In this document: one piece after another, positions 5,200 to 51,739 of the stretch | Layout of the letters: every line of letters starts with the position of its first letter | How positions within the stretch are numbered: the stretch's first letter is position 1 | NCBI GenBank assembly: GCA_963668175.1 | Contig: OY764159.1 | Location: 3,552,001-3,616,000, forward strand | Source: Syntrophales bacterium | GTDB taxonomy: Bacteria; Desulfobacterota; Syntrophia; Syntrophales; PHBD01 | DNA: 64,000 bases | Direction: 5' to 3' | Translations under genes and position numbers: made by a program | The notes under the pieces: generated by a model | Told to the model about the DNA's origin: nothing | What the model saw: only the letters and a program-made list of their open reading frames with translations | Databases searched by the model: none

Positions 5200-5230
5200 G
5201 GCGGCGACGTTTTCCGGAAAGGATAGAGAC

Positions 5231-5995: not shown

Positions 5996-6011
5996 TTGGA
6001 AAGGAGCATCT

Positions 6012-7193: not shown

Positions 7194-7213
7194 CCGAAAC
7201 CAGGAGGCACGAT

Positions 7214-8668
7214 ATGGCACTCAAGACGCCTGAAGAGTACGAAGCAAGTCTGCGTAAAATGAACATGAAGATATACCTGATGGGCGAGCGGGTGAAGGAC
7301 CCGGTGGACCATCCCATCATCCGGCCTTCGATGAACTCCGTGAAGAAGACCTACGAGCTGGCCCTGGACCCGTCCTGCGAGGACCTGATGACGGCGACGT
7401 CGTCGCTGACGGGGAAGAAGATCAACCGCTTCTGCCATCTCCACCAGAACACGGACGACCTGATCAGGAAGGTGAAGATGCAGCGTCTGCTGGGCCAGCA
7501 GACGGCGGCGTGCTTCCAGCGGTGCGTCGGCATGGACGCGATCAACGCCGTGGACTCGACGACCTTCGAAATGGACCAGAAGCTGGGGACGGAATACCAC
7601 AAGCGCTTCCGGAACTTTCTCCTCAGGATGCAGGAGGAGGATTGGACGGTGGACGGCGCCATGACGGACGTGAAGGGCGACCGCGGTCTGGCTCCGCACC
7701 AGCAGGCGGACCCGGACCTCTTTGTCCGGGTGGTGGAGAAGAACGACAGGGGGATCGTGGTGCGCGGGGCGAAGGCGCACCAGACGGGTGCGGTGAACTC
7801 GCACTGGGTTCTCGTGATGCCGACGATCGCCATGGGGAAGGACGATGCGGACTATGCGGTGGCGTTCGTCGCCCCGGCGGACGCGGAGGGCATCTTCTAC
7901 ATCTACGGGCGGCAGTCCTGCGATACGCGGAAGCTGGAAGGCGGGACGATCGACGTGGGCAACGCGACCTACGGGGGCCACGAGGCGCTGATCGTCTTCG
8001 AGGACGTGTTCGTTCCGTGGGAGAACGTCCTCATGTGCGGGGAGTGGCAGTACAGCGGGCTGCTGGTGGAGCGGTTCGCCGGTTATCACCGTCAGAGCTA
8101 CGGGGGCTGCAAGGTCGGCGTGGGCGACGTTTTGATCGGGGCGGCGGCGGTTGCGGCGGACTACAACGGAGCGGCGAAGGCCTCGCATGTGAAGGACAAG
8201 CTGATCGAGATGATGCACCTGAACGAGACGCTGTATTCTTGCGGGATTGCGTGTTCGTCGCAGGGGAGCAGGACGGCGTCGGGGACGTACCTGATCGACC
8301 TGTTGCTTGCGAATGTCTGCAAGCAGAACGTGACGCGCTACCCGTACGAGATTGCGCGGCTGGCCCAGGACATTGCGGGTGGCCTCATGGTGACGATGGC
8401 TTCGGAGAAGGATCTGAAGCACCCGGAGATCGGGAAGGTGCTGGAGAAGTACATGAAGGGCAATGCGAGCGTGCCGGTGGAGAACCGTTGCCGGATGATG
8501 CGCCTGGTGGAGAACCTGACGCTGGGAACGGCGGCGGTAGGCTATCTGACGGAATCGATGCACGGGGCGGGTTCGCCCCAGGCGCAGCGGATCATGATCG
8601 CCCGCCAGGGCAACCTGGAACACAAGAAGAAGCTCGCCGAGAAGATCGCCGGCGTAGCCGATAGATAA
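7214..8668 (+). CDS. abfD: 4-hydroxybutyryl-CoA dehydratase / vinylacetyl-CoA delta-isomerase (canonical)
   Basis: CFQRCVGMDA, HRQSYGGCK, GAKAHQTG, GGHEAL, TESMHGAGSPQAQR. AGGAGG RBS. Confidence 0.92.
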   Translation: MALKTPEEYEASLRKMNMKIYLMGERVKDPVDHPIIRPSMNSVKKTYELALDPSCEDLMTATSSLTGKKINRFCHLHQNTDDLIRKVKMQRLLGQQTAACFQRCVGMDAINAVDSTTFEMDQKLGTEYHKRFRNFLLRMQEEDWTVDGAMTDVKGDRGLAPHQQADPDLFVRVVEKNDRGIVVRGAKAHQTGAVNSHWVLVMPTIAMGKDDADYAVAFVAPADAEGIFYIYGRQSCDTRKLEGGTIDVGNATYGGHEALIVFEDVFVPWENVLMCGEWQYSGLLVERFAGYHRQSYGGCKVGVGDVLIGAAAVAADYNGAAKASHVKDKLIEMMHLNETLYSCGIACSSQGSRTASGTYLIDLLLANVCKQNVTRYPYEIARLAQDIAGGLMVTMASEKDLKHPEIGKVLEKYMKGNASVPVENRCRMMRLVENLTLGTAAVGYLTESMHGAGSPQAQRIMIARQGNLEHKKKLAEKIAGVADR

Positions 8669-12812: not shown

Positions 12813-13817
12813 TCAGGAGAAAAGCGCTGTCAGGATGGCCCAGAGACCGGCGGACAGCGTACCGGCAATAGGGATGGTCAGGATCCAGGCCCAGACGATG
12901 TTCCCGGCCACGCCCCAACGGACGGCCGATATCCTTTTCGTTGATCCGACCCCCATGATGGCTCCGGTAATGGTATGCGTCGTACTCACGGGAATGCCGG
13001 CAAGGGAGGCGCCGATGATCGATATGGCCGCAGCCGTCTCCGCGCAGAAACCGCCCATGGGTTGGAGCTTGGTGATCTTCGTTCCCATCGTTTTGACAAT
13101 CCGCCATCCGCCCGACATGGTGCCCAGGGCGATGACCGTATAGCAGAGAATGACAACCCAGAAGGGAATATGAAAGACCGGCCCCAGATGGCCGCTGCTG
13201 AAAAGAACAAGGGCGATGATGCCCATCGTCTTCTGCGCATCGTTCATTCCATGGCTGATGCTGTAGATGGCGGCGGAAAGCATTTGCAGTTTTTTGAAGA
13301 TGTTGTTCGACCGGGTAACGTTGCTGCGCCTGGACAGATTCAGAATGATGACCATCATCACAATGCCGAGAAACAAACCGACCATGGGCGAAATGACGAT
13401 GAACGCCGATGTCTTGATGACGCCTTTCCAGACGAGAACGTCCGCCCCGCCCTTCATCAGTCCGGCGCCGATAAGGCCGCCGATCAGGGCGTGGGACGAA
13501 CTGCTGGGAAGACCGAACCACCAGGTAATCAGATTCCAGATGATGGCCCCTCCCAGCGCGGCCACCAGCAGTATATTGTCGACGATGGCCGTATTGACGA
13601 TGCCGGTGCCCACCGTCTTGGCGACCTGGACGTCGAACAGGAAGACGGCCACAAAATTGAAAAAGGCCGCCCAGAGAACAGCCTGCCGCGGTTTCAGGAC
13701 CTGGGTCGAGACGATGGTCGCAATGGAGTTGGCGGAATCGTGAAAACCGTTGATGAAATCGAAAATCAAGGCAAGCACGATGATGAAGATGACAATGGCC
13801 AGGGTTGTGCTTATCAT
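12813..13817 (-). CDS. pit: Inorganic phosphate transporter, PiT family
   Basis: Both PiT signatures (GFHDSAN, HGMNDAQK), plus PSSSSHAL and PVSTTH. Confidence 0.93.
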   Translation of the reverse strand: MISTTLAIVIFIIVLALIFDFINGFHDSANSIATIVSTQVLKPRQAVLWAAFFNFVAVFLFDVQVAKTVGTGIVNTAIVDNILLVAALGGAIIWNLITWWFGLPSSSSHALIGGLIGAGLMKGGADVLVWKGVIKTSAFIVISPMVGLFLGIVMMVIILNLSRRSNVTRSNNIFKKLQMLSAAIYSISHGMNDAQKTMGIIALVLFSSGHLGPVFHIPFWVVILCYTVIALGTMSGGWRIVKTMGTKITKLQPMGGFCAETAAAISIIGASLAGIPVSTTHTITGAIMGVGSTKRISAVRWGVAGNIVWAWILTIPIAGTLSAGLWAILTALFS

Positions 13818-13822
13818 ATGGA

Positions 13823-14554
13823 TTATTCTTCTATTTCGGTTTTATCGGTCTCGGTGTCCGGGGGCAGGTCCCTGGTGATGGACCAGGCATTGAAGATACC
13901 GAAGAGGACACCGGCGACAACGAGGAAGAGCAAAAATGCGGAAAAACTCTTGTAGGCTTCCATTTGCGTCTTGGCCAGGGTTTCCGTGGCCTTCATCCTT
14001 TCATCGGCCTGTGCTTTCATTTTAGCGACGATGGCATCTATCTGCTCCGTAGGCTCCCGGTCTATACCCCGGACGCTCAGATCCACGCGCCGAGCGGTTA
14101 AGGGATCGGAACCGCGGTATTGCTTAAGGGCCTCGCGGTACTCCCTGCCGAGCCTTTCGTGGTTCGTGATCGCCGAAGGAAGCTCCGGGACGGAGAGTCC
14201 CGTCGTCTTCGTCATGGCCGCAAGAGTCTGCAGGGATTCGCCGACCAGCCGGTCTTCTTCATTGAAGGCCCTGAGATGCCGTTCGTAAAAGTCCTTGTCG
14301 TATCCCCGCAGGAGAATGTTCTTCCATTCCTGGACTTGCTTCTTGAAATGGACTTCCGCCAGACGGGCGGTGTCCGTGGCAAGCATCATGGCCTGTCCCT
14401 CCGTGACGCTTCGGTGCAGGCGGTTGTTTGTCTCCGAAATGGCAATGACGCCGTACAAACCGATAACGACGGTCAGAACGGTAAATATACCGACGGTGAT
14501 GACCACCCGTCGCCTGACGGGAATGTCCTGGAAGAATGTATTCGGTTCTTTCAT
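13823..14554 (-). CDS. Membrane-anchored chemoreceptor-type four-helix-bundle sensor domain without a signalling domain
   Basis: TM - helical periplasmic region (FKKQVQEWKNILLRG ... VRGIDREP) - TM - short acidic tail. Ends 5 bp before pit. Confidence 0.7.
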   Translation of the reverse strand: MKEPNTFFQDIPVRRRVVITVGIFTVLTVVIGLYGVIAISETNNRLHRSVTEGQAMMLATDTARLAEVHFKKQVQEWKNILLRGYDKDFYERHLRAFNEEDRLVGESLQTLAAMTKTTGLSVPELPSAITNHERLGREYREALKQYRGSDPLTARRVDLSVRGIDREPTEQIDAIVAKMKAQADERMKATETLAKTQMEAYKSFSAFLLFLVVAGVLFGIFNAWSITRDLPPDTETDKTEIEE

Positions 14555-14599: not shown

Positions 14600-14638
14600 T
14601 GTTGCAGAAATGTGACAGTATTGTGAAGATTCTGTTAA
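14600..14638 (-). promoter_or_regulatory. Pho-box-like array (4 repeats, 11-bp period) upstream of the sensor-pit genes
   Basis: Minus strand reads TTAACA gaatc TTCACA atact GTCACA tttct GCAACA. Confidence 0.75.
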
Positions 14639-14758: not shown

Positions 14759-14797
14759 TTCATGGAAAATTCACGATACCGTCATCAAATTGCAACC
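14759..14797 (+). promoter_or_regulatory. Pho-box-like array (4 repeats, 11-bp period) upstream of the 14840-22698 operon
   Basis: TTCATG gaaaa TTCACG atacc GTCATC aaatt GCAACC, then 9 nt and TATCAT (-10-like, 14807-14812). Nearly identical to the pstS array. Confidence 0.8.
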
Positions 14798-14839
14798 TGG
14801 CTTCGATATCATTGGGCCAAATTCGGGAAAGGAGAAGCA

Positions 14840-17299
14840 ATGAGCCGAAGCGAGGCGAATTCAGGTTTCTATCTTCGGAACATAGATCACATTCAGGAGT
14901 CGCCGCAGTCCTTGAACCGGATCGTAGGGGCGCTTCACATCCGGACAGACGGTAACAATATCGACTGCCGTACCCTCCCCTTTGCCCCGGGGGATACGAC
15001 GGCGGGAAGCGAGGCGGAATTACAGGCCGCCGTTATCGGACAAAAGACCAATGTCGATCTCCCGTTGATCATCGAACAATCCAATTATTACGCCAATATC
15101 ATCCGCCGGGCGGCGGCCGGCGACACGACCAGAAGGGTCATCACGGACCTGGAAAAGTTTCTTCACACCAATAACGAGCAGGTCTGGGAAAACAGTTGGG
15201 TCCGGTTCCCCCGTTCCGTCTTAAACGGGTTCGCTGAGGCGACTTTCAGGCACGATCTTCTTGCCGACAAGGAAAACCCGTCGCAGGGTGTCCGGACGGA
15301 TGCCGATAAATTCATGTTTACCCGGCAGGAGCGCGAACATATCCGTGTCCCCGTCAGCTATCTCCTGAAGCTCGCTCTGGCCGACGTCCTGGGCGCGGAG
15401 AAAGACCTTCCCCGTTCCATATGGCATTCAGGCCGGGAGCTTATGGACCATTTCCTCAACGACAACACGTCGCCGGAGACCTTCTCTTTTTACGTAACGC
15501 CCCTGAAGGCGGAGGCGGGACAGGGACAGCCGCTGGCAAGGGAAACGGGAAAGCGGTTTCTCCTGACGCAGCTTCTCACCCTGTACGCCAACGAGAAGTT
15601 CCATCTATACGCAACGGGGCAGAAAGCGGCCATCTTCTATTCGCCCCATCCTCCCGTACGGCAGCAGAGGCTCAACAACTGCATCTCCGATGCGTTCTAT
15701 CGCGAGCTTTTCATGAGCCCCTGTCTTTCCGGGTGGACCCGCGGCGAGGCCAAGCAGGACTACATGCATCTATGTCACCGGGTCTTGAGCCGCAGCCAAT
15801 TGAATACCTTGATCAAGCTGCGGGAGGCGGGGATCATCACAAGCAATCTCGTCGCTCTGCCGAATACTTCCAATGTCAGTCTCGCCAACAACGGGACCCA
15901 CATCAGCCTCGGCAGCCGCAAGCTCGGCGAGGCCATGAAAGACAGGACGTCGGGATTTAACAGGGCTTCCGAGAAATATGCCGGAGACCTCGTCGTGAAG
16001 ATGGTGGAACATTTCCTCCCCCTCTTCGTCGGCAGTTACAGCGCGGCCCCGTACCGTCTCGACTACCTGGATTTTCATCCCGAAAAGGTACTGGGGTTCC
16101 TCCCCCATGAACTGGATTACACCCATCTGCGCATGATCTGGCGGCGGTGGCAGAAAAAGGCGGGCATCAAGATCATGGGCCGTCCCACGACGCCTTTCGG
16201 TCCCATCTGGCTCGACCGCATGATCAAGACGGTTTTCGACCTGAAGGGCGATTACGTCCCCGATTACCGTCTGGTCGATTATCTGGTCGCCCTGATGAGC
16301 ACGGAAAAGAGTCCGGCCCTCGACGGCCGCCTGCACAACAGCGATCGCCTCAAGGCGGACCTCGCCGATCTGGGCGTTTTCGACAACAAAATGTCCCTTT
16401 ATCTCTTCGAGAAACTCCGGGAACATGAAGTCATGGGATTTTCCGGATTCGAGGCGCGCCATTACAGCATCTTCTGCCGCTTCGAAGAGGACATGGGGCG
16501 GGCAGCCGCACTGCAGAATCTACTCTATTGCCTGGCCTTCCAGTACATCGCCAAGGGACTCCTGACTCACGATCACATCCCGGACAATCCCGTCGTGGAA
16601 AGCGAACGGAGGCAGATTATCTTCGGGGCGGCTATCGGCATCCCCACGTTCTTCGTTCGCCAGGACACCCAGAATCTCTTCCTGAAGAGAATTGTTTCCG
16701 GAGCGTCCCGTAATCGCCACAGCCGACGGTATCCGGGATATACCCGCGTGCATAACGACGAATACCGGCGGGCGCTTCTTCGGATTTTGCGGGAGGATGC
16801 CGCCGAGTTGATCGAGATGTTCGGCATGCAGGAGGTGATCGACGATCTGTCCCGGCGCCTGGACGATCCCAAGCATTTTTCGGTTGCCGGGCGTCTCAGC
16901 CGTGCCGTCTGCGAAGAAGCAGGCGTCAAATCCCCTCTGCAGGCGGAGGCAGCCGAATTCAACCGGGCCGCCGAGAAGTACTATCGGGAAAAACTGCGTG
17001 CCGGCCACATCGAGGAGAGTCTGCGGTTCTTCGAAGAGGACCTGCTGAATCTGCACCGCGCGGAAGGTCTGCGCCGCGAGACGATCCGTAACGCCGTCCG
17101 TTTTATCCTCCAGGACGGAGATGACCGTCAATTCTTCTCGAAAGTAAGCAAGTCCATAAGTGCTGAGACCGTGACCGAAGAAGACTTGAGAAAACTGATC
17201 TATCTTTTGATTTTAACGATTCATGAGGAAAAATCACACTATGTATGTACAAAAGAACCAGGCAGCACAGGAACACCCCATGCTGCATCACTATGTTGA
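14840..17299 (+). CDS. Uncharacterised 819-aa protein, possibly a carboxylate-amine ligase (GS/glutamate-cysteine ligase fold)
   Basis: Long ORF with AAGGAG RBS. Motifs TAGSEAELQ, NNGTHISLG and FEARH resemble the GxExE, GxH and ExR motifs of the superfamily. Function is inferred. Confidence 0.6.
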   Translation: MSRSEANSGFYLRNIDHIQESPQSLNRIVGALHIRTDGNNIDCRTLPFAPGDTTAGSEAELQAAVIGQKTNVDLPLIIEQSNYYANIIRRAAAGDTTRRVITDLEKFLHTNNEQVWENSWVRFPRSVLNGFAEATFRHDLLADKENPSQGVRTDADKFMFTRQEREHIRVPVSYLLKLALADVLGAEKDLPRSIWHSGRELMDHFLNDNTSPETFSFYVTPLKAEAGQGQPLARETGKRFLLTQLLTLYANEKFHLYATGQKAAIFYSPHPPVRQQRLNNCISDAFYRELFMSPCLSGWTRGEAKQDYMHLCHRVLSRSQLNTLIKLREAGIITSNLVALPNTSNVSLANNGTHISLGSRKLGEAMKDRTSGFNRASEKYAGDLVVKMVEHFLPLFVGSYSAAPYRLDYLDFHPEKVLGFLPHELDYTHLRMIWRRWQKKAGIKIMGRPTTPFGPIWLDRMIKTVFDLKGDYVPDYRLVDYLVALMSTEKSPALDGRLHNSDRLKADLADLGVFDNKMSLYLFEKLREHEVMGFSGFEARHYSIFCRFEEDMGRAAALQNLLYCLAFQYIAKGLLTHDHIPDNPVVESERRQIIFGAAIGIPTFFVRQDTQNLFLKRIVSGASRNRHSRRYPGYTRVHNDEYRRALLRILREDAAELIEMFGMQEVIDDLSRRLDDPKHFSVAGRLSRAVCEEAGVKSPLQAEAAEFNRAAEKYYREKLRAGHIEESLRFFEEDLLNLHRAEGLRRETIRNAVRFILQDGDDRQFFSKVSKSISAETVTEEDLRKLIYLLILTIHEEKSHYVCTKEPGSTGTPHAASLC

Positions 17300-18296
17300 A
17301 AGAAACAGCCGCGCAATCCGGCAGGAACGGTTTCGCGGCCACCGCGTCATTCCTTTTATCTACTCCCGCGTCCGGGAGAATTCGCCTCTGTTGTTCCGTC
17401 TTCTGACCAGCCGGAGGATATGCTCCCTCGTCGGTTTTTTGAGTTTCAGCGAGTTCATCAATGAAAGGCTGACCGATCCGCATCGTTTCATGCGGGAAAC
17501 GGGGGTGGACGCGCGGGAATGCCTTGACCTGCCCGTTTCGCTGAATACGCCGAAGAAAATTTTTGAAAGGAAAATCCGTTACTGGGATTGCCGTCCGATG
17601 CCCCACGATCCGGCGGCCGTCGTATCGCCCGCGGATTCGCGAGTGCTTGTGGGATCGTTCGACGAATCGTCAAGCCTTCTTCTCAAGGGAAAATTCTTCG
17701 ATTACGAAGAACTCCTGGGCGTCAACAGGAGACTCTGGCTTGACGCCTTCCGGGGAGGAGATTACGCCGTGTTCCGGCTGACCCCGGATAAATACCACTA
17801 CAACCATACGCCGGTAGCCGGAATTGTGAGAGATCACTACGAAATAGACGGCCGGTATCATGCGTGTCATCCCGCGGCGGTCGTTTCCATGATTACGCCG
17901 TATTCAAAGAACAAACGGGTCGTCACGGTCATCGACACGGACGTGCCGGGAGGCACCGGCCTGGGGCTCGTCGCCATGGTGGAAGTCGTCGCGATGATGA
18001 TCGGCGATATCGTCCAGTGCTACAGCGAATCGCAATATGACCGTCCCGTGTTTCTCTACGACGGTCTTTTTATGAAAAAAGGACAACCGAAGAGCCTGTT
18101 TCGCCCTGGAAGCAGCACGGTCGTCCTGATGTTTCAGAAAAATCGGGTGAGATTTTCCGACGACATCGTCTGGAACATGAGCCGACCGGACGCGGCGTCG
18201 ATTTTTTCCCGCGGTTTCGATCAACCGCTGGTGGAAACGGACGTTATGCTCCGCAGCCTTATCGGAACGGCGAGATTCCAGAAGCCGAACGCCTAG
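17280..18296 (+). CDS. Phosphatidylserine decarboxylase family (pyruvoyl) enzyme
   Basis: SPADSR, LTPDKYHYNHTP and the self-cleavage site FRPGSSTVV. Overlaps the upstream stop. Start could be 17241. Confidence 0.85.
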   Translation: MLHHYVERNSRAIRQERFRGHRVIPFIYSRVRENSPLLFRLLTSRRICSLVGFLSFSEFINERLTDPHRFMRETGVDARECLDLPVSLNTPKKIFERKIRYWDCRPMPHDPAAVVSPADSRVLVGSFDESSSLLLKGKFFDYEELLGVNRRLWLDAFRGGDYAVFRLTPDKYHYNHTPVAGIVRDHYEIDGRYHACHPAAVVSMITPYSKNKRVVTVIDTDVPGGTGLGLVAMVEVVAMMIGDIVQCYSESQYDRPVFLYDGLFMKKGQPKSLFRPGSSTVVLMFQKNRVRFSDDIVWNMSRPDAASIFSRGFDQPLVETDVMLRSLIGTARFQKPNA

Positions 18297-18366
18297 CGTG
18301 CATCGCGGAAACGGACGGAACAGAAATAATCCATTCACTTTGAGGGAACTTCCCGGGAGGTATCTG

Positions 18367-18807
18367 ATGAGACAGCTGGAATCGTTAATGGATGGGCGGA
18401 AAACGAAGTCCAGAGAAACGGCCATGCACAGTAAGGCCCACGCGGCGATCAGAACGGAGCTTGTCGGGAGGTTGCGCCAGTTGCGCGGCATGGCTTCCCA
18501 CACGGTCAGCGGCATGAAGAACGACAGGGAGAATCCCGCCGATATCATCGACCTCGCTTCGCGGGAGGAGTCCCGGCACATCGAGCTTGCCATCCGGGGC
18601 CGAGAGAGGGAAACCATCCAGGACATCGAGAACGCCATTGCCCGTATCGATTCGGGCGAATTCGGCATATGCGAGGAGTGTAGCGGGGCAATTACGATCG
18701 GACGGCTCCTGGCCAAACCGACAACGACATACTGCCGGACATGCCAGGAGAAGCGTGAAAGGGCTTTCCGGGGACAGGGCCAGCCTGAAATGTTCCGCGC
18801 GGCGTAA
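18367..18807 (+). CDS. DksA/TraR C4 zinc-finger protein
   Basis: DIIDLA coiled-coil tip and CEEC-x17-CRTC. GGGAGG RBS. Confidence 0.88.
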   Translation: MRQLESLMDGRKTKSRETAMHSKAHAAIRTELVGRLRQLRGMASHTVSGMKNDRENPADIIDLASREESRHIELAIRGRERETIQDIENAIARIDSGEFGICEECSGAITIGRLLAKPTTTYCRTCQEKRERAFRGQGQPEMFRAA

Positions 18808-18820
18808 TACCAGGAACATC

Positions 18821-20323
18821 ATGAACGATTCACGTCTCTGGATGAAGAAACTGGCGGACCATTACCGCAGCGTCACCCGCCGCTTTCCCGAAGCAAAACA
18901 CATGATCGTCTTCGACATCGACGGCACGATCCTCGATTCGCGATACATGATCCGCCGCACCCTTCAGTCCTTCGACCGCCATCACGGGACGGAATTCTTC
19001 AGAGACCTCTCCGTTGCCGACATCACCTTCCCCGAAACAGTCCTTGCAGACATCCTGGTATCCCTCGGGCTTCCGGGAGACCGGCAGCGGCAAATCGTCG
19101 CCTGGTATACGGAACACGGCTGGTCGGCCGAATCGGTGCTGGAAGCCCATCGTCCGTTTATCGGCGTGATGGAGGTCATCCGGTGGTTCCAGATTCAGCC
19201 CAATACCCTCGTCGGACTCAACTCCGGCCGGTCCGAGTCGGTCAGGGCGGAAACCCTTTGCTGTCTCAACAAGATCGGAAGGCGCTTCAAGGTCAACTTC
19301 ACGAACGATCTCCTCTATCTGAACCGCAACGGCTGGGACGGCGGGGTCATCGAATCCAAGCTGGAAGGCATGCTTCATTTCCAAAAGGCCGGCTACCGGC
19401 TGTTCGCCTTTGTGGACAACGAGCCGGAGAATCTCGAGGCCGTCGCCTCCATGGACAGGCGGCAGGAGATGATGCTCCTTCACGCCGACACGATCTTTCG
19501 TTCGCAAAGGATGCTCGTACCGAATCGGGCCGTCAGCGGCGACCGTTACGACGTGGCCGAGCTCTTCGCCGAGCATTCGCTGCCCGGCCACATCCAGTTC
19601 GTGTGGCACTCGATCAGCGGCAGGGATAATTTCCTGCGGTTTCTCGCATCCAACGTGCAGTGGGCCGAATTTCCCGTCCGCCTCGGCTACGACGGCAACC
19701 ATCTCGTCATCCGCAACGATTCATACGATGGCGATCTTCCGGAGTACGAAAGTGATGTCCTCTATTTGAAGAAACTTCTTCCCGAGCTTTCCGCAAAGGA
19801 AAAATCGATCAAGATCGACATGAAGGAAGAGACTTTTCCCGTCGATCAACTCATCGATCTTCTGAAACGTTGCGGCTACGACGACAGCCGTCTGTGGTTC
19901 AACGGCAAGATCGAAGCCTTGAAGGAAAAAGGGTTTCGGAAGCTGGCGGCTGCATATCCCCGGGCGATTCTCCAATGCCCCGTCGACGACCTGGTGCCCC
20001 TGATGCTCGGCAGCCCGGCGACCGCCCTGTCCGTCCTCGATACGTTCCGGTCGTGGGGCATTAACCGGGTTTCCCTGAGCTGGAAGACACCGTTCCTGGA
20101 AGCCGCTCTGGAAAAGCTGGAGCGCTGGGGCTTCGAAGTCAATATCTACAATGTGCCCGACCTGGAATCGTTTCTTTCGGCCGTCCTGATGCTTCCCCAA
20201 TCGATTACTTCGGATTTCAACTTTACGCCCTGGCTTCAGGAATCAACAAAATTCCGGGGAAGACATACCGCAAAGGAGTGCCATCTAAGCGGCATAATGA
20301 CACATCCCGGGACAGGAGGCTGA
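18821..20323 (+). CDS. HAD-family phosphatase fused to a PLC/GDPD-like (menorin-like) TIM-barrel domain
   Basis: N-terminal VFDIDGT, NSGR and FVDNEPEN HAD motifs. The C-terminal half has VWHS...WAEFPVR...SIKIDMK, resembling PLC-like phosphodiesterases (less certain). Confidence 0.65.
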   Translation: MNDSRLWMKKLADHYRSVTRRFPEAKHMIVFDIDGTILDSRYMIRRTLQSFDRHHGTEFFRDLSVADITFPETVLADILVSLGLPGDRQRQIVAWYTEHGWSAESVLEAHRPFIGVMEVIRWFQIQPNTLVGLNSGRSESVRAETLCCLNKIGRRFKVNFTNDLLYLNRNGWDGGVIESKLEGMLHFQKAGYRLFAFVDNEPENLEAVASMDRRQEMMLLHADTIFRSQRMLVPNRAVSGDRYDVAELFAEHSLPGHIQFVWHSISGRDNFLRFLASNVQWAEFPVRLGYDGNHLVIRNDSYDGDLPEYESDVLYLKKLLPELSAKEKSIKIDMKEETFPVDQLIDLLKRCGYDDSRLWFNGKIEALKEKGFRKLAAAYPRAILQCPVDDLVPLMLGSPATALSVLDTFRSWGINRVSLSWKTPFLEAALEKLERWGFEVNIYNVPDLESFLSAVLMLPQSITSDFNFTPWLQESTKFRGRHTAKECHLSGIMTHPGTGG

Positions 20324-21624
20324 TGATCAAGACCTTTATCCTCGACACCAACGTACTTCTCCACAACCCCGACGCCCTTTTCGCCTTTGAAGAAAACCGG
20401 GTGATCGTCCCTTTTGTCGTCGTTGAGGAGATCGATTCGCAGAAAATGAGGCAGGACGAGATCGGGAGGAACGCCAGGCTCGTTTCCCGGAATCTCGACG
20501 GCATGAGGGCCCATGGGCATCTTGCCGAAGGCGTGCGGCTTCCCTCCGGGGGAGTCGTTCAGATCGAACTGAACCATCAGAACCTGGACGCATTCCCTGT
20601 GGTTCTGGACAGGGGTAAGTACGACAACCGCATTCTCGCCGTCGCCTGCCATTTCCATAAGGAAAACCCGGGCAGAACGCTCCTGGTAACGAAAGATCTT
20701 AATCTAAGAGTGAAGGCCGATGTCCTCGGCATTCCCGCAGAGGATCTCTTCAAAGACACCGTCGATTACCCGCAGCTCTACGAGGGCGTCGGTCACCTGA
20801 ACGGAACGGCGGAAGACATGAATGCCCTCTATCGGGAAGGAGAACTGGCGCTGAGCGGCAGCGAATGCGCATGCCCCCATCAGTTCTTCGTTCTGAAGGA
20901 CCCGGACAGTCCTTCCCAATCGGCCCTGTGCCGCCACCTGGACGGCACTCTGTACCCTCTGAACTATGCCGATGCGGTCAACTACGGAGTCAAAGCCAGG
21001 AACAAGGAACAGAAATTCGCCCTGGAACTCCTGATGAACGACGATATCCGGGTCGTCACCCTGGTGGGCAGGGCCGGAACGGGAAAGACCCTGCTGGCGC
21101 TGGCGGCAGGCCTGACGAAGGTGGTCGAGCACAAGGTCTATCGGAGGCTCCTTGTCACCCGTCCGGTAGTCCCCATCGGCAACGATTTGGGCTATCTCCC
21201 CGGTTCCAAAGAAGACAAGCTCCGGCCCTGGATGCAGCCGATCTTCGATAATCTGGAATTTCTCCACGCCGACATTAAGCACCGCCGGCAGACGATCGAG
21301 CAGCTCATCGAAAACGGCACGCTGGAAATGGAGGCCCTGACCTATATCCGGGGAAGAAGCATTCCCAAACAGTTCATTGTCTGCGACGAAGCGCAGAATC
21401 TCACACCGGTGATGATTAAGACGCTCGTTACACGCGTCGGGGAAAAATCCAAGATCGTCTTCACCGGCGACCCGGAACAGATCGATAATCCTTATCTGAA
21501 CGCGGGCAGCAACGGTCTGACGTATCTCGTGGAAAAGATGAAAGGCGAGGCGCTGGCCGGCCATATCATCCTGAATAAGGGTGAGCGCTCCGCCGTTGCC
21601 GAACTCGGGGCGAAAATACTTTGA
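20323..21624 (+). CDS. PIN-PhoH family ATPase (YlaK/PhoH2-like)
   Basis: LDTNVLL PIN motif, GRAGTGKT, YIRGRS, DEAQN, GDPEQID. TGATG overlap with the upstream gene. Confidence 0.93.
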   Translation: MIKTFILDTNVLLHNPDALFAFEENRVIVPFVVVEEIDSQKMRQDEIGRNARLVSRNLDGMRAHGHLAEGVRLPSGGVVQIELNHQNLDAFPVVLDRGKYDNRILAVACHFHKENPGRTLLVTKDLNLRVKADVLGIPAEDLFKDTVDYPQLYEGVGHLNGTAEDMNALYREGELALSGSECACPHQFFVLKDPDSPSQSALCRHLDGTLYPLNYADAVNYGVKARNKEQKFALELLMNDDIRVVTLVGRAGTGKTLLALAAGLTKVVEHKVYRRLLVTRPVVPIGNDLGYLPGSKEDKLRPWMQPIFDNLEFLHADIKHRRQTIEQLIENGTLEMEALTYIRGRSIPKQFIVCDEAQNLTPVMIKTLVTRVGEKSKIVFTGDPEQIDNPYLNAGSNGLTYLVEKMKGEALAGHIILNKGERSAVAELGAKIL

Positions 21625-21642
21625 TTATGCAAGGAGGCTTCA

Positions 21643-22698
21643 TTGGATCATAACGGACTGGTTCTGTTCATACTGGCGCTTGGCCTGGCCCTGCTCTTTT
21701 CATGGGGGTTCAGGACATTGCCCCGGGAAGGCTGGCAGGTCATGGCCTGCATTCCCCGGGAAAGAAGGGGCGACGGCCTGTGGAACGGCGTGAATTTCAC
21801 CTATTACGGCTTTTTCAATGCCACGGCGAACGTTATGGCGGTTCTGCTTTTGATCGTCCTCCTCAGGTCGGTGCAGGTCGCTCCGGCGTTCATCTTCATG
21901 CTGGCGGCCGGCGGCCTCGGAATCTGCATTCCGGCGTCGAAACTGCTCGCCCGCTGGGTGGAAGGAAAGCCCCACACATTCACCGTGGGCGGCGCTTCGT
22001 TTGCGGGTATTCTCATCCTGCCGTGGACGGTGTTCATCCTCGACACATTCTTCCGGCGATTTTTGGGCGGTCATCTTCCCGTCATGACCGCCATGGCCGC
22101 GATCACGATCGCCTACAGCCTGGGAGAAGGTGTCGGGCGGCTGGCCTGCATCAGCTTCGGATGCTGTTACGGGAAACCCCTTTCCGCCGTCCATCCGCTC
22201 CTGAGAAGAATCTTCGCTAAATATTATTTCGTCTTCGACGGGCCGACCAAGAAGATCTCTTATGCCCACCATCTTGACGGGGAACCCGTGGTCCCGGTGC
22301 AAGCTCTCACTTCCGTTCTTTACACGGCCGCCGCTCTTCTGGGATCGTATCTTTTCCTTGCCGGCCTGCATGCCGCCGCCTTCGTAAGTACCGTGGCAGT
22401 CACCCAGTTATGGCGCCTTGTCTCCGAGTTTCTCAGGGCCGATTACCGGGGTGGCCGGGTCTTCTCCGCCTACCAGATCATGGCCCTCGCAGCGGTCGGT
22501 TACACCGTGTTCCTGATGTCGATCTTTCCGGAACCGGCGGCCCGCGGGGCCGACATCGTTACCGGTCTCGCATCAACCTGGAACCCGGTTGTCATCATAC
22601 TTCTCCAATTATTGTGGGCGGCTATCTATATCTACACGGGAAGGAGCCGCGTCACGGCCAGCGTCGTTTCGCTCTGTGTCGTCAGGGATAAGACTTGA
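21643..22698 (+). CDS. Divergent prolipoprotein diacylglyceryl transferase (Lgt)-family membrane protein
   Basis: YYGFF, GRLACISFGCCYG, WRLVSEFLRAD and many TM helices. AGGAGG RBS with TTG start. Confidence 0.75.
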   Translation: MDHNGLVLFILALGLALLFSWGFRTLPREGWQVMACIPRERRGDGLWNGVNFTYYGFFNATANVMAVLLLIVLLRSVQVAPAFIFMLAAGGLGICIPASKLLARWVEGKPHTFTVGGASFAGILILPWTVFILDTFFRRFLGGHLPVMTAMAAITIAYSLGEGVGRLACISFGCCYGKPLSAVHPLLRRIFAKYYFVFDGPTKKISYAHHLDGEPVVPVQALTSVLYTAAALLGSYLFLAGLHAAAFVSTVAVTQLWRLVSEFLRADYRGGRVFSAYQIMALAAVGYTVFLMSIFPEPAARGADIVTGLASTWNPVVIILLQLLWAAIYIYTGRSRVTASVVSLCVVRDKT

Positions 22699-22817: not shown

Positions 22818-23786
22818 ATGATCCTATCGCTTATCATAACCCGCAGATATGTGCGGACGGCGGCGGCCGTTCTGGCCGTTTTTGTCGTTTCCGTCTTTGC
22901 AGCTCCGGACATTCCATCCTCCTTTTCCTCCCGCCTGCCGTATGCGGCCTTGCTGGCGAAAGAAAAGAATCCCGCTCACCGCTGGTTTAAAAAAAAGAGA
23001 TTGACGAAGCTCCGGGGCGTCGTTCTCGTCGTACACGGCCTGAACCTGAGGCCGGAGCGCATGAAGGCCGTCATCCGCGTCCTGAACGAGGCCGGAATGG
23101 ACGTTCTTAACCTGTCCCTTCACGGTCACGGGGAAAATTATCTGCCCATGGCCGGATTGTCGGATAAAGAGGCCCGCCTGGAATCTTTCCGGCGTGTCAG
23201 TTACACCCTGTGGGCCGGAGAGCTTCGCGACGCCTATCGCAAGGCGCGGGAACGGGCCGATGAGAAAGGCGTTCCCGTCTATTTTGCGGGTTTCTCGCTC
23301 GGGGGGCTCCTGGGGTGTGATTTGCTGGCATCGGATCGCGACGTGTCGTTCCGGCGCATGATCCTCTTTGCCCCGGCTCTCAACGTCATGATCGAGGCGC
23401 ACTTGCTGAAGACCTTGACCCCCTTCCCCAATCTGGTCATCGACAGCCTGTCGCCGCCCTCTTACCGGACCAACGACGGGACGCCCATGGCCGCCTATCG
23501 GGCCCTGTTCGAGGCCATCGCCCATCTTAAAGAGCAGAGTACCGACAGGCTCGATATTCCCACCCTGGTCTTCATCGACGAAAACGACGAATTGATCGAC
23601 GGCCGAAACTTGACGGAGATCGCCTGGAAAGGCCTCACGCGGTGGCGGATCGTGATGCTTCACAGAGACAAAGACGATCCCGGCCCGCAGACACTCTCTC
23701 ACCACCTGATCATCGACGAGGCCGGCACGGGAAGGGAGGCGTGGAAACGAGTCGAGGCGGAGATAAGGCGGCATGTCCGCGAATAA
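22818..23786 (+). CDS. Exported or membrane-anchored alpha/beta hydrolase (carboxylesterase/lysophospholipase-like)
   Basis: VHGL oxyanion motif, GFSLGG nucleophile elbow, DELID and SHHL acid/base candidates, hydrophobic N-terminus. Confidence 0.8.
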   Translation: MILSLIITRRYVRTAAAVLAVFVVSVFAAPDIPSSFSSRLPYAALLAKEKNPAHRWFKKKRLTKLRGVVLVVHGLNLRPERMKAVIRVLNEAGMDVLNLSLHGHGENYLPMAGLSDKEARLESFRRVSYTLWAGELRDAYRKARERADEKGVPVYFAGFSLGGLLGCDLLASDRDVSFRRMILFAPALNVMIEAHLLKTLTPFPNLVIDSLSPPSYRTNDGTPMAAYRALFEAIAHLKEQSTDRLDIPTLVFIDENDELIDGRNLTEIAWKGLTRWRIVMLHRDKDDPGPQTLSHHLIIDEAGTGREAWKRVEAEIRRHVRE

Positions 23787-23882: not shown

Positions 23883-24272
23883 TCAGGCGCAACGTGCAAT
23901 CAGGGAAAGCACCCTGGTTTCGATCAGGCCCCGGACACGCCGGAAAGTATCGTCATCCATATGAACAGGGTCAGGGATGGACCACTCCTCCCGCTGACCG
24001 GCGGGTATCAACCGGCAGACATCTTCGCATCCCATCGTTATGACGTAGTCGTAGAAATCGGCCGGCAGATCGGCAAGGGACTTGGTAAATTGCCTGTTGA
24101 GATCGCAGCCGATTTCATTCATCATGGCGACGGTTCTGGGATGAACCGCTCGTGACGGCGTCGATCCGGCACTGAAGGCAGCAATCCTGTCCCATCCGTA
24201 GTTTCGCGCGAAGGCCTCCGCCATCTGGCTCCGGCAGGCATTTCCCCGGCAGACGAACAACACTTTTTTCAT
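23883..24272 (-). CDS. arsC: LMW-PTPase-family arsenate reductase
   Basis: CRGNACRSQMAE P-loop, SAGS, TMGCEDVC, WSIPDP. Confidence 0.85.
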   Translation of the reverse strand: MKKVLFVCRGNACRSQMAEAFARNYGWDRIAAFSAGSTPSRAVHPRTVAMMNEIGCDLNRQFTKSLADLPADFYDYVITMGCEDVCRLIPAGQREEWSIPDPVHMDDDTFRRVRGLIETRVLSLIARCA

Positions 24273-24343
24273 GGTTTGCCTCACGCGATCCGGAAACCGT
24301 CTTCTTCGTTTCCGGAGAAAGGTTGTCCCGAACATCCATGTTT

Positions 24344-26662
24344 TCATCTCTGCCGCCGGTCGCGAACGTAGACACTGCCCGGCTTCGATTTCGCATATTG
24401 TTTTAACTGGGCCATCTTGGCCGAGATCTCTTTCATGTCCTTTCCGGTTCCGGCCGTGCAGTCGAGAACGGCCATGGAAACGGATACAAAAGGAAACCAT
24501 TTTTCATTGCCGGACCGGTCCAGGGCGAAGATGCCGCCTGCCGCCCTGTCCTCGGAGCTGTAAAGACGGTCGATATGCTTGTCGAAGCTTTCGATGACCT
24601 TCCGGCAAAGTGTATCCACATGCTCGTCCGTGGTGAAAATCAGGAAATCGTCTCCGCCGATATGGCTCAGAAAATCATCTTCGCCGCCGTGATGCTCCAC
24701 GGTCTCTTTCAGAAGGTTGGCCGTATAGAGAATCACTTCATCGCCTTTTTCGAAGCCGTACTTGTCATTGTACGATTTAAAATGATCCAGATCGATAAAG
24801 ATGATACTGAATGCTGCTCCCTGGGAGGCCCGACGCAGATGTTCCTGCTCGATGGCGATATTGCCGGGGAGCCCCGTGAGCGGATTCGCCCCTTTGGCAA
24901 GTTCAACCCTGATTCTGGTCATGGTGTCGAGGAGCGTCTGGACGGAAACGACCCCCTGCATGAGGCCGGTTCTCGTGACGATGATGTTGTCGTAGAGCTT
25001 GATTTTATTCCGGCTCATGGCGGCCTGCGAAACCAGTTCAACAGGGGCGCAGTGGTCGACAATCAGCGGCAGCTTATCCATAATCCTGGCAATAGGTTTT
25101 TCGTAATAGAGGGCGACGCCGTACTTGCGGCCGAGGTGCCTGTCCAGGTGCTGCCTCATGACGAGACCGCACGGTTTTCCGGCTTCGACGACGACAATGC
25201 CGGCCAGGGAGTTGTCGGCGTCAAAAATGGTCTTGACGTCTTTAACCGGCGTCTGCTCCCCTATGGTAATCGCTTCATCCACAATATCTCCGATAGGAAA
25301 GGCATGCTTGAGGAGACGATAGCGGCCGTTATTGACGAAGTGGAGCGTCTTCAGATACGTTTCCCGCGGCGCAGCCTGTTTGGACCGGAACGGTTTACCG
25401 AAGAAATATCCCTGACCGTAATGAACGCCGATATTGGCCAGGGCGGCCAGTTCGCCTTCCTCTTCGACGCCTTCGGCGATGATTTCGCAACCGATTTTCT
25501 CGGAGAAGGTTACAAATGTTTCCATCAGGGCCGTCTTGACCCTGTCTTTATGAATACCCCTGACCAGGGACATGTCGATCTTGATATAGTCGGGCCGGAT
25601 TTCAGCGATGGACTGAAGCGAGGAAAAACCGGAGCCCACGTCGTCCAGGGCCACGAGGAATCCCTGGTCCCGGTAGTTGGCAAGCGTCTTGTTCAAAGCG
25701 TTGAAATCGGTAATGTGATGCCGTTCCGTAATCTCGAAAACGACGTTTTTCGGTTTCATGCCTAAGGCATCGATTAGTCCAAGGGTTTCATCCTCGACGA
25801 AGTGAAGGTCGTTGACGGTCTTCGGATGGATATTGATGAAGACCTTCTGGTCCGGGCCAACCTCACCCAGACCGTTGAGGGCCGATTCGCGGCATATTTT
25901 CTCCAATGGAAAGAGGAGTCCTTCTTCCTCGGCAAAAGAAAAGATAACGTCAGGCCGGTGGAAATAACTATCCTCCGGTCCGCGCACCAAAGCTTCCCAG
26001 CCGAGGACAGCGGCGGAACGGATGGAGATGATGGGCTGGTAGACCGAATGAAACCCGCCCTCTTTGAGTAAACGTTTAAACTCGGGAAGATAGCGAACGG
26101 ATTGCATGTTGATGAACCCCTTGGCAATGGCATAGGCCTTCTTTGTGGCGTTATACAGCATAAGTTCCGTATTGTTCCTCTTGTCCGTGATGACGGCATG
26201 ACCGATATGAATATCCATGTCCCGCCCCGTCAGCAAACGGAACTCCTCGTTCATGGTGTCCTTGATCTGCCTGCGGTAGGCAACGGCCGAGTCTTCCAAT
26301 GTGCCCAGCGTCGGCGCCCGATCGGCTTCCGTGATAAGAATGAAATCTTCGCCCCAGAGGCTTTCAGCCGCGAGAATGCTTACATGGCGCCGGGAGAGGA
26401 TCCCCATGCCGTGAATCAGCGTATCCTTGAAAAGGCCGATAATACGATCGGCAATGTCCATTCCCGCAGCGTTTTCTATTTCGTGAAGCCGGGCGATATC
26501 GAAATAGAATAAGACGACACACTTCCCTTCCTCCAGACTGGCCGACATTTTCCGAAGTAAGCCAGGATCATGGCGGATATTGCTTCGCCCCAGACCTTGG
26601 ATCAGCCCATTGCCGGAGTTGATGTTATGTATATGGATTCCTTCCGCAAATGTATCTTGCAT
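24344..26662 (-). CDS. c-di-GMP signalling protein: degenerate GGDEF + EAL + CBS pair + GGDEF
   Basis: WGEDF, WEALVR, DDVGSGFSS, AEGVE, QGY, CBS-like region, NPLTGLPGN and IGGDDF. Confidence 0.9.
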   Translation of the reverse strand: MQDTFAEGIHIHNINSGNGLIQGLGRSNIRHDPGLLRKMSASLEEGKCVVLFYFDIARLHEIENAAGMDIADRIIGLFKDTLIHGMGILSRRHVSILAAESLWGEDFILITEADRAPTLGTLEDSAVAYRRQIKDTMNEEFRLLTGRDMDIHIGHAVITDKRNNTELMLYNATKKAYAIAKGFINMQSVRYLPEFKRLLKEGGFHSVYQPIISIRSAAVLGWEALVRGPEDSYFHRPDVIFSFAEEEGLLFPLEKICRESALNGLGEVGPDQKVFINIHPKTVNDLHFVEDETLGLIDALGMKPKNVVFEITERHHITDFNALNKTLANYRDQGFLVALDDVGSGFSSLQSIAEIRPDYIKIDMSLVRGIHKDRVKTALMETFVTFSEKIGCEIIAEGVEEEGELAALANIGVHYGQGYFFGKPFRSKQAAPRETYLKTLHFVNNGRYRLLKHAFPIGDIVDEAITIGEQTPVKDVKTIFDADNSLAGIVVVEAGKPCGLVMRQHLDRHLGRKYGVALYYEKPIARIMDKLPLIVDHCAPVELVSQAAMSRNKIKLYDNIIVTRTGLMQGVVSVQTLLDTMTRIRVELAKGANPLTGLPGNIAIEQEHLRRASQGAAFSIIFIDLDHFKSYNDKYGFEKGDEVILYTANLLKETVEHHGGEDDFLSHIGGDDFLIFTTDEHVDTLCRKVIESFDKHIDRLYSSEDRAAGGIFALDRSGNEKWFPFVSVSMAVLDCTAGTGKDMKEISAKMAQLKQYAKSKPGSVYVRDRRQR

Positions 26663-47128: not shown

Positions 47129-47149
47129 TTCCGTGAAACATCGTCCACG

Positions 47150-47749: not shown

Positions 47750-47777
47750 GAATGACCCCCTTTTTGCAATTCCTTGA

Positions 47778-48239: not shown

Positions 48240-48243
48240 TTGC

Positions 48244-51658: not shown

Positions 51659-51700
51659 AATGCTTCTCCTCCGTTTTTTGGCAATAATGTAATGGAACAT

Positions 51701-51739
51701 TGTTGCAGTTTGATGAAGGTATCGTGAAATATCCGTGAA
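51701..51739 (-). promoter_or_regulatory. Pho-box-like array upstream of pstS
   Basis: Minus strand reads TTCACG gatat TTCACG atacc TTCATC aaact GCAACA, then 9 nt and TACATT (-10-like). Confidence 0.8.

Follow-up and report, generated by a model that had tools for sequence, protein, structure and literature searches.

A candidate phosphate-regulated three-gene pathway to a phosphorus-free thioether aminolipid in a Syntrophales bacterium and other anaerobes

In a 64,000-nucleotide stretch of the genome of a Syntrophales bacterium (assembly GCA_963668175.1, contig OY764159.1, positions 3,552,001 to 3,616,000 of the forward strand; hereafter the window), an operon preceded by Pho-box-like repeats carries the genes for a large soluble protein without a family name, a pyruvoyl enzyme of the phosphatidylserine decarboxylase (PSD) family and a divergent member of the prolipoprotein diacylglyceryl transferase (Lgt) family. 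We propose that the region is a PhoB-type-regulated operon and that this trio turns phospholipid into a phosphorus-free thioether aminolipid. The product would be the "butyramide cysteine glycerols" (BACys) described in 2024 from phosphate-starved Desulfatibacillum alkenivorans, a reading to which we give a probability of roughly 60%, with the substrates and the identity of the product deduced from the enzyme families and the lipid formulae.

The use of phosphorus-free lipids in place of phospholipids is a main microbial route to survive phosphorus scarcity, and to our knowledge the genes for such a replacement are largely unknown in anaerobes. The known Pho-controlled remodelling routes employ PlcP together with glycosyltransferases, BtaA and BtaB for betaine lipids, and OlsB with OlsA, or OlsF, for ornithine lipids. 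The trio would share with them the Pho-controlled exchange of phospholipids for phosphorus-free lipids, and phospholipase C and glycosyltransferase genes are indeed found beside it in some genomes. However, none of those enzyme families is present in the trio, which would instead use an alkyl transfer of the Lgt type to move the diacylglyceryl moiety straight from a phospholipid onto the sulfur of the head group. Lipid remodelling under phosphate starvation is thus a known kind of system, whereas the pathway, the three enzyme subfamilies and an Lgt-type transfer to a small thiol were not found described in the literature.

A conserved three-gene unit within the operon

An open reading frame (ORF) scan of the window gave six long co-directional ORFs on the plus strand between 14744 and 22698. 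With the N-termini of orthologues, the start codons and the ribosome-binding sites as guides to the gene starts, the operon reads as follows.

14840-17299, plus strand: large soluble protein of 819 residues from an unnamed family, with a glutamate-cysteine ligase (GCL)-like fold; proposed gamma-glutamyl-cysteine-type amide ligase
17280-18296, plus strand: pyruvoyl decarboxylase of the PSD family (Pfam PS_Dcarbxylase, 7e-39)
18367-18807 (alternative start 18298), plus strand: DksA-family zinc-finger protein (Pfam DksA_N and zf-dskA_traR)
18821-20323, plus strand: HAD fusion, with an N-terminal HAD IIIB-like phosphatase (marginal in Pfam) and an unnamed domain of 270 residues
20323-21624, plus strand: PIN-PhoH (PhoH2-type) protein (Pfam PIN_4 and PhoH)
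21643-22698, plus strand: divergent integral membrane transferase of the Lgt family (Pfam LGT just under the cut-off)

The genes for the large and the PSD-like proteins overlap by 20 nt, at most 70 nt separate the PSD-like gene from that of DksA, and a 13-nt gap lies between the latter and the HAD fusion, which in turn overlaps the PIN-PhoH gene by 1 nt; a further 18-nt gap leads to the Lgt-like gene. A promoter and terminator scan revealed no convincing terminator inside the operon, the numbers of sites being similar to those in shuffled sequences, and no Rfam family reached its gathering score anywhere in the window. An earlier note, made from the sequence letters, had described six tightly coupled genes at 14759..22698, and the junctions bear out the coupling. 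The right-hand limit is the end of the Lgt-like gene, while 14759 is the first base of a repeat array and not a gene start. Five of the gene names given there are backed by Pfam, marginally so for HAD and LGT, whereas Pfam finds nothing in the half of the HAD fusion labelled "PDE", a label that can be taken as a lead only.

Relatives of the large protein are abundant: 2949 homologues were found among 8000 candidates scored from a 90%-clustered collection, with 753 representatives at 50% clustering, and of 600 candidate stretches taken from species-representative genomes at least 536 contain a relative. All locus counts given here rest on the best 80 of these at least 536 related loci, namely those closest to the query. 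In 68 of the 72 loci whose downstream sequence extends for 1.5 kb or more, a co-oriented PSD-like gene starts no more than 600 nt beyond the large gene, and both the PSD-like and the Lgt-like genes accompany the large gene in 60 of the 65 loci with at least 4 kb downstream. The median gaps within the trio are -21.5 nt between the large and the PSD-like genes and 55 nt to the Lgt-like gene. Among the five exceptions, three loci (L008, L009 and L020) have neither partner, one (L032) carries a 5.5-kb insertion with two histidine kinase genes, and one (L045) is devoid of the Lgt-like gene.

The remaining genes of the operon behave differently. Downstream of the large gene and in its orientation, the same 65 loci contain DksA in 16 cases, the HAD fusion in three, PIN-PhoH in none and pstS in 10. 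Since the trio stays together in nearly all loci and the other three genes accompany it in a minority or in none of them, the unit is the trio. The conserved unit therefore consists of three genes, and DksA, the HAD fusion and PIN-PhoH are lineage-specific local inserts that lie outside it. Of the six-gene operon described in the earlier note, the ligase-PSD-Lgt core holds across genomes and the rest does not.

A large protein with a glutamate-cysteine-ligase-like fold

The large protein has no transmembrane segment. Searches of Pfam (E ≤ 0.01) and NCBIfam assigned it to no family, and searches of the PDB by sequence and by profile gave no match at E ≤ 10; the ESM Atlas search was likewise empty. 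The 120 homologues listed are 57-100% identical to it, and none has a Pfam domain or a name beyond "hypothetical protein". Its AlphaFold2 model, computed from a 42-sequence alignment reaching 31% identity, has a predicted local distance difference test score (pLDDT) of 90.0 and a predicted TM-score of 0.91, while a model from 20 close sequences, with a pLDDT of 60.6, was too poor for a structure search. In a Foldseek search of the PDB, ranks 1-11 and 17 among the matches listed are glutamate-cysteine ligases or the GCL domain of GshF, with E-values from 6.8e-4 to 3.3e-2 and probabilities of 0.99-1.00 for ranks 1-11 and 0.84 for rank 17. The next matches are PafA, Dop and YbdK, with a target-normalised TM-score of up to 0.54 (YbdK). 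GCL, GshF, PafA, Dop and YbdK share the carboxylate-amine ligase fold, and, as there is no sequence-level signal, membership of the superfamily is assigned by fold only. At that level, the designation "ligase-like" given to this protein in advance was right.

Several motifs are conserved among the orthologues of the large protein, namely G.E.E (73 of 74), N[ND]GTH.S (68 of 74) and G[FY]SGFE.R (66 of 74). These acidic, His and Arg motifs are located on predicted strands, as would be expected for an active enzyme of this kind, and may correspond to the metal-binding Glu and His and the Arg residues on the active-site sheet of the superfamily. Compared with GshA and GshF, the large protein thus has them as its best structural matches and places its Glu-x-Glu, His and Glu-x-Arg motifs on predicted beta-strands, yet it has no detectable sequence similarity to either and is about 300 residues longer, with a C-terminal helical domain.

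The PSD-like decarboxylase

The second protein of the trio belongs to the PSD family with confidence (Pfam PF02666, 134 bits against a cut-off of 22), although it misses the cut-offs of all PSD equivalogs, the best of which, NCBIfam NF001941, gives 133.4 bits against a cut-off of 371. The cleavage motif PGSS is present in 68 of 69 orthologues, and so is the motif [DE]xYHxxHxP (68 of 69), which aligns with D142, H144 and H147 of Escherichia coli PSD. According to a study of that enzyme (PMC7952604), H144 is essential and the Asp and His residues activate the Gly-Ser self-cleavage, while Tyr-137 binds the lipid phosphate and is replaced by Arg in 15% of PSDs. In the PSD-like family the Tyr-137 position is likewise taken by Arg, within a motif of the FRLTP type found in 63 of 69 orthologues. 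The E. coli and PSD-like enzymes are therefore alike in belonging to the pyruvoyl family and in their Asp and His residues and Gly-Ser cleavage site; they differ in the sequence of that site, LGST in Psd and PGSS in the PSD-like protein, in the change of Tyr-137 to Arg, and in the substrate, which in the PSD-like enzyme is proposed to be a lipid-bound gamma-glutamyl residue.

The first two enzymes might also serve a soluble product, for example 4-aminobutanoyl-cysteine or another thiol or peptide for redox or metal handling during starvation, or the ligase might be a PafA-like protein ligase, the membrane enzyme being peripheral in either case. PafA, Dop and YbdK are indeed among the structural matches of the large protein, and PSD-family enzymes can act on soluble amino acids; the profile of the PSD-like family matches the PsiD tryptophan decarboxylases at 2.5e-6 to 9.4e-5. 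We nevertheless consider such a role highly improbable, as the glutamate-cysteine ligases rank above PafA and Dop, the PSD-like profile aligns far better with the membrane enzyme (1.5e-16 for E. coli PSD) than with PsiD (2.5e-6), and the large gene keeps the company of the membrane transferase as faithfully as that of the decarboxylase.

The Lgt-like membrane transferase

The third protein is a divergent relative of Lgt. In the window it scores 24.5 bits with Pfam LGT (PF01790) against a cut-off of 24.9, and 21 of 24 orthologues match the model at E ≤ 0.1, at best with 1.2e-11; the alignment to E. coli Lgt with hhalign has an E-value of 9e-5 and a probability of 59.5%. When the Lgt-like profile was compared with PDB sequences, the matches were at chance level and Lgt was not among them. 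Public sources annotate the proteins of this group as prolipoprotein diacylglyceryl transferase, and homologues include those of Desulfonema ishimotonii and Desulfococcus sp.

For E. coli Lgt, the structural study (PMC4728403) gives R143, R239, E243, R246, H103 and E151 as essential residues and G142-R143...N146...E151...G154 as the signature, with E151 located in the first, substrate-selecting site and H103 in the HGGL arm. The Lgt-like proteins retain some of these residues in full and have lost others. First, the motif GR.xC....CC.G is found in all 66 orthologues, so that counterparts of R143 and G154 are kept. Next, N146 and E151 are replaced by invariant cysteines and H103 by Val or Ala in the hhalign alignment, none of the 66 orthologues having a His at the HGGL position. 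In E. coli Lgt, these three residues take part in selecting the donor or handling the acceptor. Finally, WR...E..R.D.R is invariant (66 of 66) with the spacing of R239, E243 and R246, the hhalign register being off by one residue. Taken together, the retention of R143, G154 and the R...E..R counterparts and the replacement of H103, N146 and E151 suggest, from the alignments, that the catalytic core for breaking the glycerol-phosphate bond appears to be kept and the parts that choose and activate the substrate are changed. Thus, the Lgt-like protein shares with E. coli Lgt the Pfam family (in 21 of 24 orthologues), an apparently similar seven-helix layout by crude hydropathy, the counterparts of R143 and G154 and the probable counterparts of R239-E243-R246, but differs in the positions of H103, N146 and E151 and in the proposed acceptor, a dipeptide thiol instead of a lipobox protein; and while E. 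coli Lgt is a housekeeping enzyme, the Lgt-like gene is Pho-linked.

The public annotation of the third protein suggests a different explanation, in which three independent members of the Pho regulon travel together: a true phosphatidylserine decarboxylase, a lipoprotein transferase specific to starvation or else a hydrolase of the phospholipase C kind that would release glycerol phosphate, and an unrelated large protein. In crystals of E. coli Lgt, phosphatidylglycerol was slowly hydrolysed to diacylglycerol (PMC4728403), the hallmarks of PSD are kept in the second protein, including the residues of the phosphate site, and in three loci the large gene stands alone. Against this, the order and tight coupling of the genes, with overlapping or near-abutting frames, hold in 60 of 65 loci across phyla. 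Moreover, H103 and E151, essential in Lgt by the same structural account, are replaced in all 66 orthologues, and the PSD-like protein lies far below the PSD equivalog cut-offs (133 against 371 bits), which makes an assembly of unconnected functions quite improbable. Lipidation of PstS by the Lgt-like enzyme was also considered and is rejected for this genome, where the PstS of the window has a Sec signal peptide but no lipobox cysteine, a point that likewise speaks against a starvation lipoprotein transferase.

Proposed pathway and product

A pyruvoyl decarboxylase requires a free alpha-amino acid, and a ligase of the GCL type leaves one on its gamma-glutamyl product. From these two properties, the simplest joint chemistry of the trio would be ligation, S-alkylation and decarboxylation. 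First, the 819-residue ligase would use ATP to join the gamma-carboxyl group of glutamate to the amino group of cysteine, giving gamma-Glu-Cys. Next, the Lgt-like enzyme would move a diacylglyceryl (or alkyl/acyl-glyceryl) group from a phospholipid such as phosphatidylglycerol to the cysteine thiol, with the release of glycerol phosphate. Finally, the PSD-like enzyme would form a Schiff base with the glutamyl residue, the only one with a free alpha-amino acid end, and remove the carboxyl group of that end to leave a 4-aminobutanamide. The order of the last two steps is presumed. The resulting S-(diradylglyceryl)-N-(4-aminobutanoyl)cysteine would be a zwitterionic stand-in for phosphatidylethanolamine.

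A lipid of this composition appears to have been reported. In D. alkenivorans, phosphatidylethanolamine, phosphatidylglycerol and cardiolipin are almost wholly replaced by glucuronosyl lipids and novel "N-butyramide cysteine glycerols"; both the replacement and the BACys lipids are reported only at 0.0005 and 0.0015 mM phosphate (Ding et al. 2024, PMC11181052). The head-group ion is given there as C7H13O3N2S+ at m/z 205.064, and the intact lipids as C42H81O7N2S (m/z 757.575) for BACys-DAG(32:0); those with a diether core are listed as C42H85O5N2S and those with a mixed core as C41H81O6N2S (PMC11181052). Our calculations for 4-aminobutanoyl-cysteine, that is, gamma-Glu-Cys minus CO2, give C7H14N2O3S and 205.0641 for [M-H]+, and one condensation with diacylglycerol (DAG) 32:0, diether glycerol (DEG) 32:0 or acyl/ether glycerol (AEG) 31:0 gives 757.5759, 729.6174 and 729.5810, respectively; the calculated compositions are identical to the published formulae (PMC11181052). 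The division of labour supposed in the earlier note, with the ligase building an amide head group, the Lgt-like enzyme attaching diacylglycerol and the PSD-like enzyme decarboxylating it, hence predicts the BACys formulae exactly.

The published formulae also bear on the linkage. The oxygen count of BACys leaves none for an ether oxygen at sn-3, and a head-group ion that keeps all three oxygens would be easier to reconcile with a sulfur link than with an ester at the carboxyl group (formulae from PMC11181052). The bonds that define BACys, namely the amide between a C4 amino acid and cysteine, the lost carboxyl and the oxygen-free glyceryl link, correspond to reactions typical of the three enzyme families. 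D. alkenivorans and the trio are further alike in that the lipids come from a phosphate-limited anaerobic member of the Thermodesulfobacteriota and their formulae equal the predicted product. They differ in that BACys is a lipid description without named genes as far as the accessible text goes, while the Syntrophales operon of the window is known from genes alone, and it is we who infer the link between them. The accessible part of PMC11181052 names no genes for BACys lipids, the term turned up in no other paper searched, and a literature search found no follow-up work. In that sense, the system is undescribed, as had been supposed: no described pathway with this gene set was found in the literature, though its product is probably the lipid reported in 2024 and not a new one.

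Several points weigh against this assignment. The ligase call comes from fold alone, with borderline E-values (6.8e-4 to 5.6e-3) and a query-normalised TM-score of about 0.3, and hhalign gives the large protein a probability of 0.3% against E. coli GshA. The Arg at the phosphate-binding Tyr-137 position, as in 15% of true PSDs (PMC7952604), means that the PSD-like enzyme could be an ordinary phosphatidylserine decarboxylase. In L008, L009 and L020, the large gene lies behind a four-repeat array with no adjacent PSD-like or Lgt-like gene. As for the lipid, the published structure is tentative and comes from tandem mass spectrometry (MS2; PMC11181052), and the formulae separate neither a thioether from an ester through the cysteine carboxyl nor 4-aminobutanoyl from an isomer. 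The published lipid table of that study has no row with the O9 N2 S composition of the carboxylated intermediate, which can be regarded as neutral. Last, since the active site of E. coli Lgt faces the periplasm (PMC4728403) and neither the ligase nor the PSD-like protein has a signal peptide or transmembrane anchor, the pathway would need a step for which the trio does not account, either export of the head group or flipping of the lipid, unless the topology differs.

A phosphate-starvation lipid pathway with a product other than BACys, such as another diacylglycerol-linked amino-acid lipid, a glucuronosyl-lipid amide or an N-modified phosphatidylethanolamine, would fit the conservation, the Pho context and the lipid-enzyme families equally well. 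The Arg at the Tyr-137 position would suit an anionic group near the scissile amino acid, and GT4 and MGDG-synthase genes in the neighbourhood of the trio show that other remodelling routes lie beside it. Such a product is nevertheless rather unlikely, as no other reported lipid needs all three chemistries at once and the exact identity of the formulae with BACys would have to be a coincidence.

The wider claim on BACys is that the trio would constitute a complete thioether-lipid pathway that works by a new kind of remodelling, with a one-step conversion of phosphatidylglycerol to a phosphorus-free lipid and recoverable glycerol phosphate followed by a PSD-type decarboxylation of the lipid-bound gamma-glutamyl group, and that it would do so in anaerobes of seven or more phyla, with over 500 species genomes carrying it; we judge the odds of this to be a little better than even. 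If true, the orphan lipid of 2024 would gain a three-gene candidate pathway that is present in cultured strains and directly testable. It would also mean new chemistry in three superfamilies, namely a sequence-orphan GCL fold, an Lgt lipidating a small molecule and a PSD acting on a glutamyl residue, and about 3000 database proteins called Lgt or PSD would be misnamed. Sulfur aminolipids and their genes would then widely indicate phosphorus stress where soils, sediments and reactors are anoxic, the genes serving as a genomic marker of such stress in anoxic habitats.

Pho-box-like arrays and phosphate regulation

PhoB/OmpR-family activators bind direct repeats with an 11-nt period that replace the -35 box. 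Arrays of this kind are found at three places in the window, as listed here with the associated elements.

14759-14796, plus strand: Pho-box-like array before the operon, with half-sites TTCAT, TTCAC, GTCAT and TGCAA at an 11-nt period
14807-14812, plus strand: putative -10-like TATCAT, assigned from the sequence
14601-14638, minus strand: second array, facing the divergent operon of the membrane protein and Pit; exact pattern match at 14601-14627, overlapped by a promoter-like site
13823-14554, minus strand: membrane protein with two transmembrane segments, first gene of the divergent operon, sharing the intergenic region with the large gene
12813-13817, minus strand: PHO4/Pit phosphate transporter (Pfam), in the divergent operon
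51702-51739, minus strand: reference array before pstS (27-nt core at 51702-51728)
50840-51700, minus strand: PstS-family gene, probable start 51658 (TIGR02136, 283.7 bits, cut-off 206.6)

The 27-nt cores of the operon array and the pstS array differ at two positions, and both arrays stand at an equal distance from an identical ribosome-binding site. A search for the core with at most three mismatches gave two matches in the window and none in 100 shuffles, in agreement with an earlier remark that the four-repeat array before the operon is almost identical to that before pstS. The pattern of the last three half-sites, TTCACN6KTCAYN5TGCAAC, has three exact matches in the window and likewise none in 100 shuffles. 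The operon had also been called divergent from pit, which is correct with the addition that the membrane-protein gene lies between them and has its own array, the third, at 14601-14638. As such arrays are shared by the operon, the Pit operon and pstS, we infer on good grounds that the operon is co-regulated with pstS by a PhoB-type regulator. No PhoB gene is present within the 64-kb window.

Arrays are also frequent in the other genomes. If an array is taken to mean two or more half-sites [GT]T[ACT]A[CT] at a spacing of exactly 11 nt, 40 of 67 loci have one in the 250 nt that precede the large gene, compared with 4.2% of 5000 random 250-nt windows from the same loci and eight of 67 on the opposite strand; chains of at least three half-sites are found in 10 of 67 loci and in 0.38% of the random windows. 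Both comparisons across genomes that had been suggested with the first description of the operon, the co-occurrence of the trio (60 of 65 loci) and the presence of upstream Pho boxes (40 of 67), have hence turned out in its favour. In addition, the motif GTAAC-N6-TT[TC]AC has 22 occurrences across the 80 loci, 12 of which are within 300 nt upstream of the large gene, in Geobacteraceae loci.

On the minus strand of the window at 46100-51700, pstCAB does not follow the Pho-box-preceded pstS; a complete Mla set (MlaE, MlaD, MlaC and MlaA) is found there after a 480-nt gap, and the Mla ABC ATPase (48244-49503) is fused to a GGDEF domain.

Accessory genes of the operon

The HAD IIIB assignment of the fusion protein is marginal, with 25.2 bits for the long ORF and 27.6 bits for the N-terminal part alone against a Pfam cut-off of 27. 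The protein is cytoplasmic, with neither a signal peptide nor a transmembrane segment. No Pfam family, GDPD included, matches the 270 residues of its C-terminal half at E ≤ 10, although the nearest language-model clusters of this half in the ESM Atlas are GDPD/Menorin phosphodiesterases at 0.85-0.86. The C-terminal half is thus possibly GDPD-like, a lead which would fit the label "PDE". With its HAD phosphatase and possible phosphodiesterase parts, the fusion protein would serve this genome to recover phosphate from the leaving group, and, should the Lgt-like reaction release glycerol phosphate, a phosphatase on the same transcript would make sense.

The PIN-PhoH protein has both Pfam domains and scores 331 bits with NF053827 against a cut-off of 680. 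It is plausible that DksA and PIN-PhoH are general starvation regulators on the shared transcript. One further gene follows the Lgt-like gene:

22818-23786, plus strand: alpha/beta hydrolase (Hydrolase_4), a possible accessory lipase that may have its own promoter

Homologues of this hydrolase are near the large gene in seven of 80 loci. On the minus strand 3′ of the operon, positions 23883-26662 encode an ArsC/LMWP-type phosphatase and an EAL-CBS-GGDEF protein.

Neighbouring genes in other genomes

The 1004 neighbouring ORFs of the 80 loci were clustered, and the representatives were named by Pfam and NCBIfam. The neighbours found, with the number of loci out of 80, are as follows.

25 of 80 loci: histidine kinase
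18 of 80 loci: OmpR-family regulator, best model PhoB, usually directly upstream
18 of 80 loci: PstC/A
18 of 80 loci: PstB
17 of 80 loci: DksA
13 of 80 loci: PstS
12 of 80 loci: GT4 glycosyltransferase of 800 residues
12 of 80 loci: EAL-CBS-GGDEF protein (loci such as L002, L008 and L020)
11 of 80 loci: PhoU
10 of 80 loci: small unknown protein and zinc-dependent phospholipase C, encoded immediately 3′ of the Lgt-like gene in the same orientation

Neighbours seen at single loci are PhoX with a phytase-like protein, two PhoD genes, PsiE, Ppx, alkaline phosphatase, polyphosphate kinase, and a set of DAG-kinase, PAP2 and MGDG synthase. These sets indicate that the trio keeps company with phosphate acquisition, phospholipid breakdown and glycolipid synthesis; Pho-regulon and lipid-remodelling genes being the commonest neighbours, the theme of lipid remodelling under phosphate starvation put forward in the earlier note is well supported.

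The small protein that precedes phospholipase C, as in L041:14409-15890 and nine more loci, has 171 residues and a weak match to DUF2062. The GT4 glycosyltransferase of the 12 loci may, as a lead only, correspond to the glucuronosyl lipids of D. alkenivorans (PMC11181052). In the Syntrophus buswellii DM-2 locus, there are two genes for PhoB-like regulators, the first immediately ahead of the large gene and the second located between dksA and the Lgt-like gene, and a hybrid kinase, a pyruvate kinase barrel, alkaline phosphatase and pstS are encoded downstream. L008, one of the loci with the large gene alone, has a RimK/glutathione-synthetase-like ATP-grasp gene and a PhoU-domain gene upstream of it, as does the anammox locus L055. 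In the latter, a metagenome-assembled genome (MAG), an AstE/AspA-type deacylase-methyltransferase fusion (L055:14578-16023) that could modify the head group follows the Lgt-like gene.

Taxonomic spread

The loci come from Syntrophales, Geobacteraceae and other Desulfuromonadales, Desulfobacterales, Acidobacteriota, Nitrospirota, NC10, an anammox bacterium and Nitrospinota, and cultured carriers include Syntrophus buswellii, Citrifermentans bremense and Desulfonema. Among the relatives of the BACys producer, the trio is present in the Desulfobacterales loci L059 and L066. In a quick tree, the large protein of the window groups with those of a Syntrophales MAG and S. buswellii DM-2 with a support of 96, and the clades mostly track orders; two "Bacillota" bins fall within other clades and may be mis-binned.

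A search for fused PSD-like forms gave two matches, one of which, P0271 (713 residues), is a fusion of the N-terminal half of the large protein (residues 45-423) with a PSD-like protein; being a single assembled sequence, it is probably a deletion or an assembly artefact and was not used as evidence. Elsewhere in the window, the plus strand at 4336-8668 encodes a 3-hydroxyacyl-CoA dehydrogenase, an enoyl-CoA hydratase, a thiolase and a second HpaB/4-hydroxybutyryl-CoA-dehydratase-like protein, the longer minus-strand ORFs being shadow frames.

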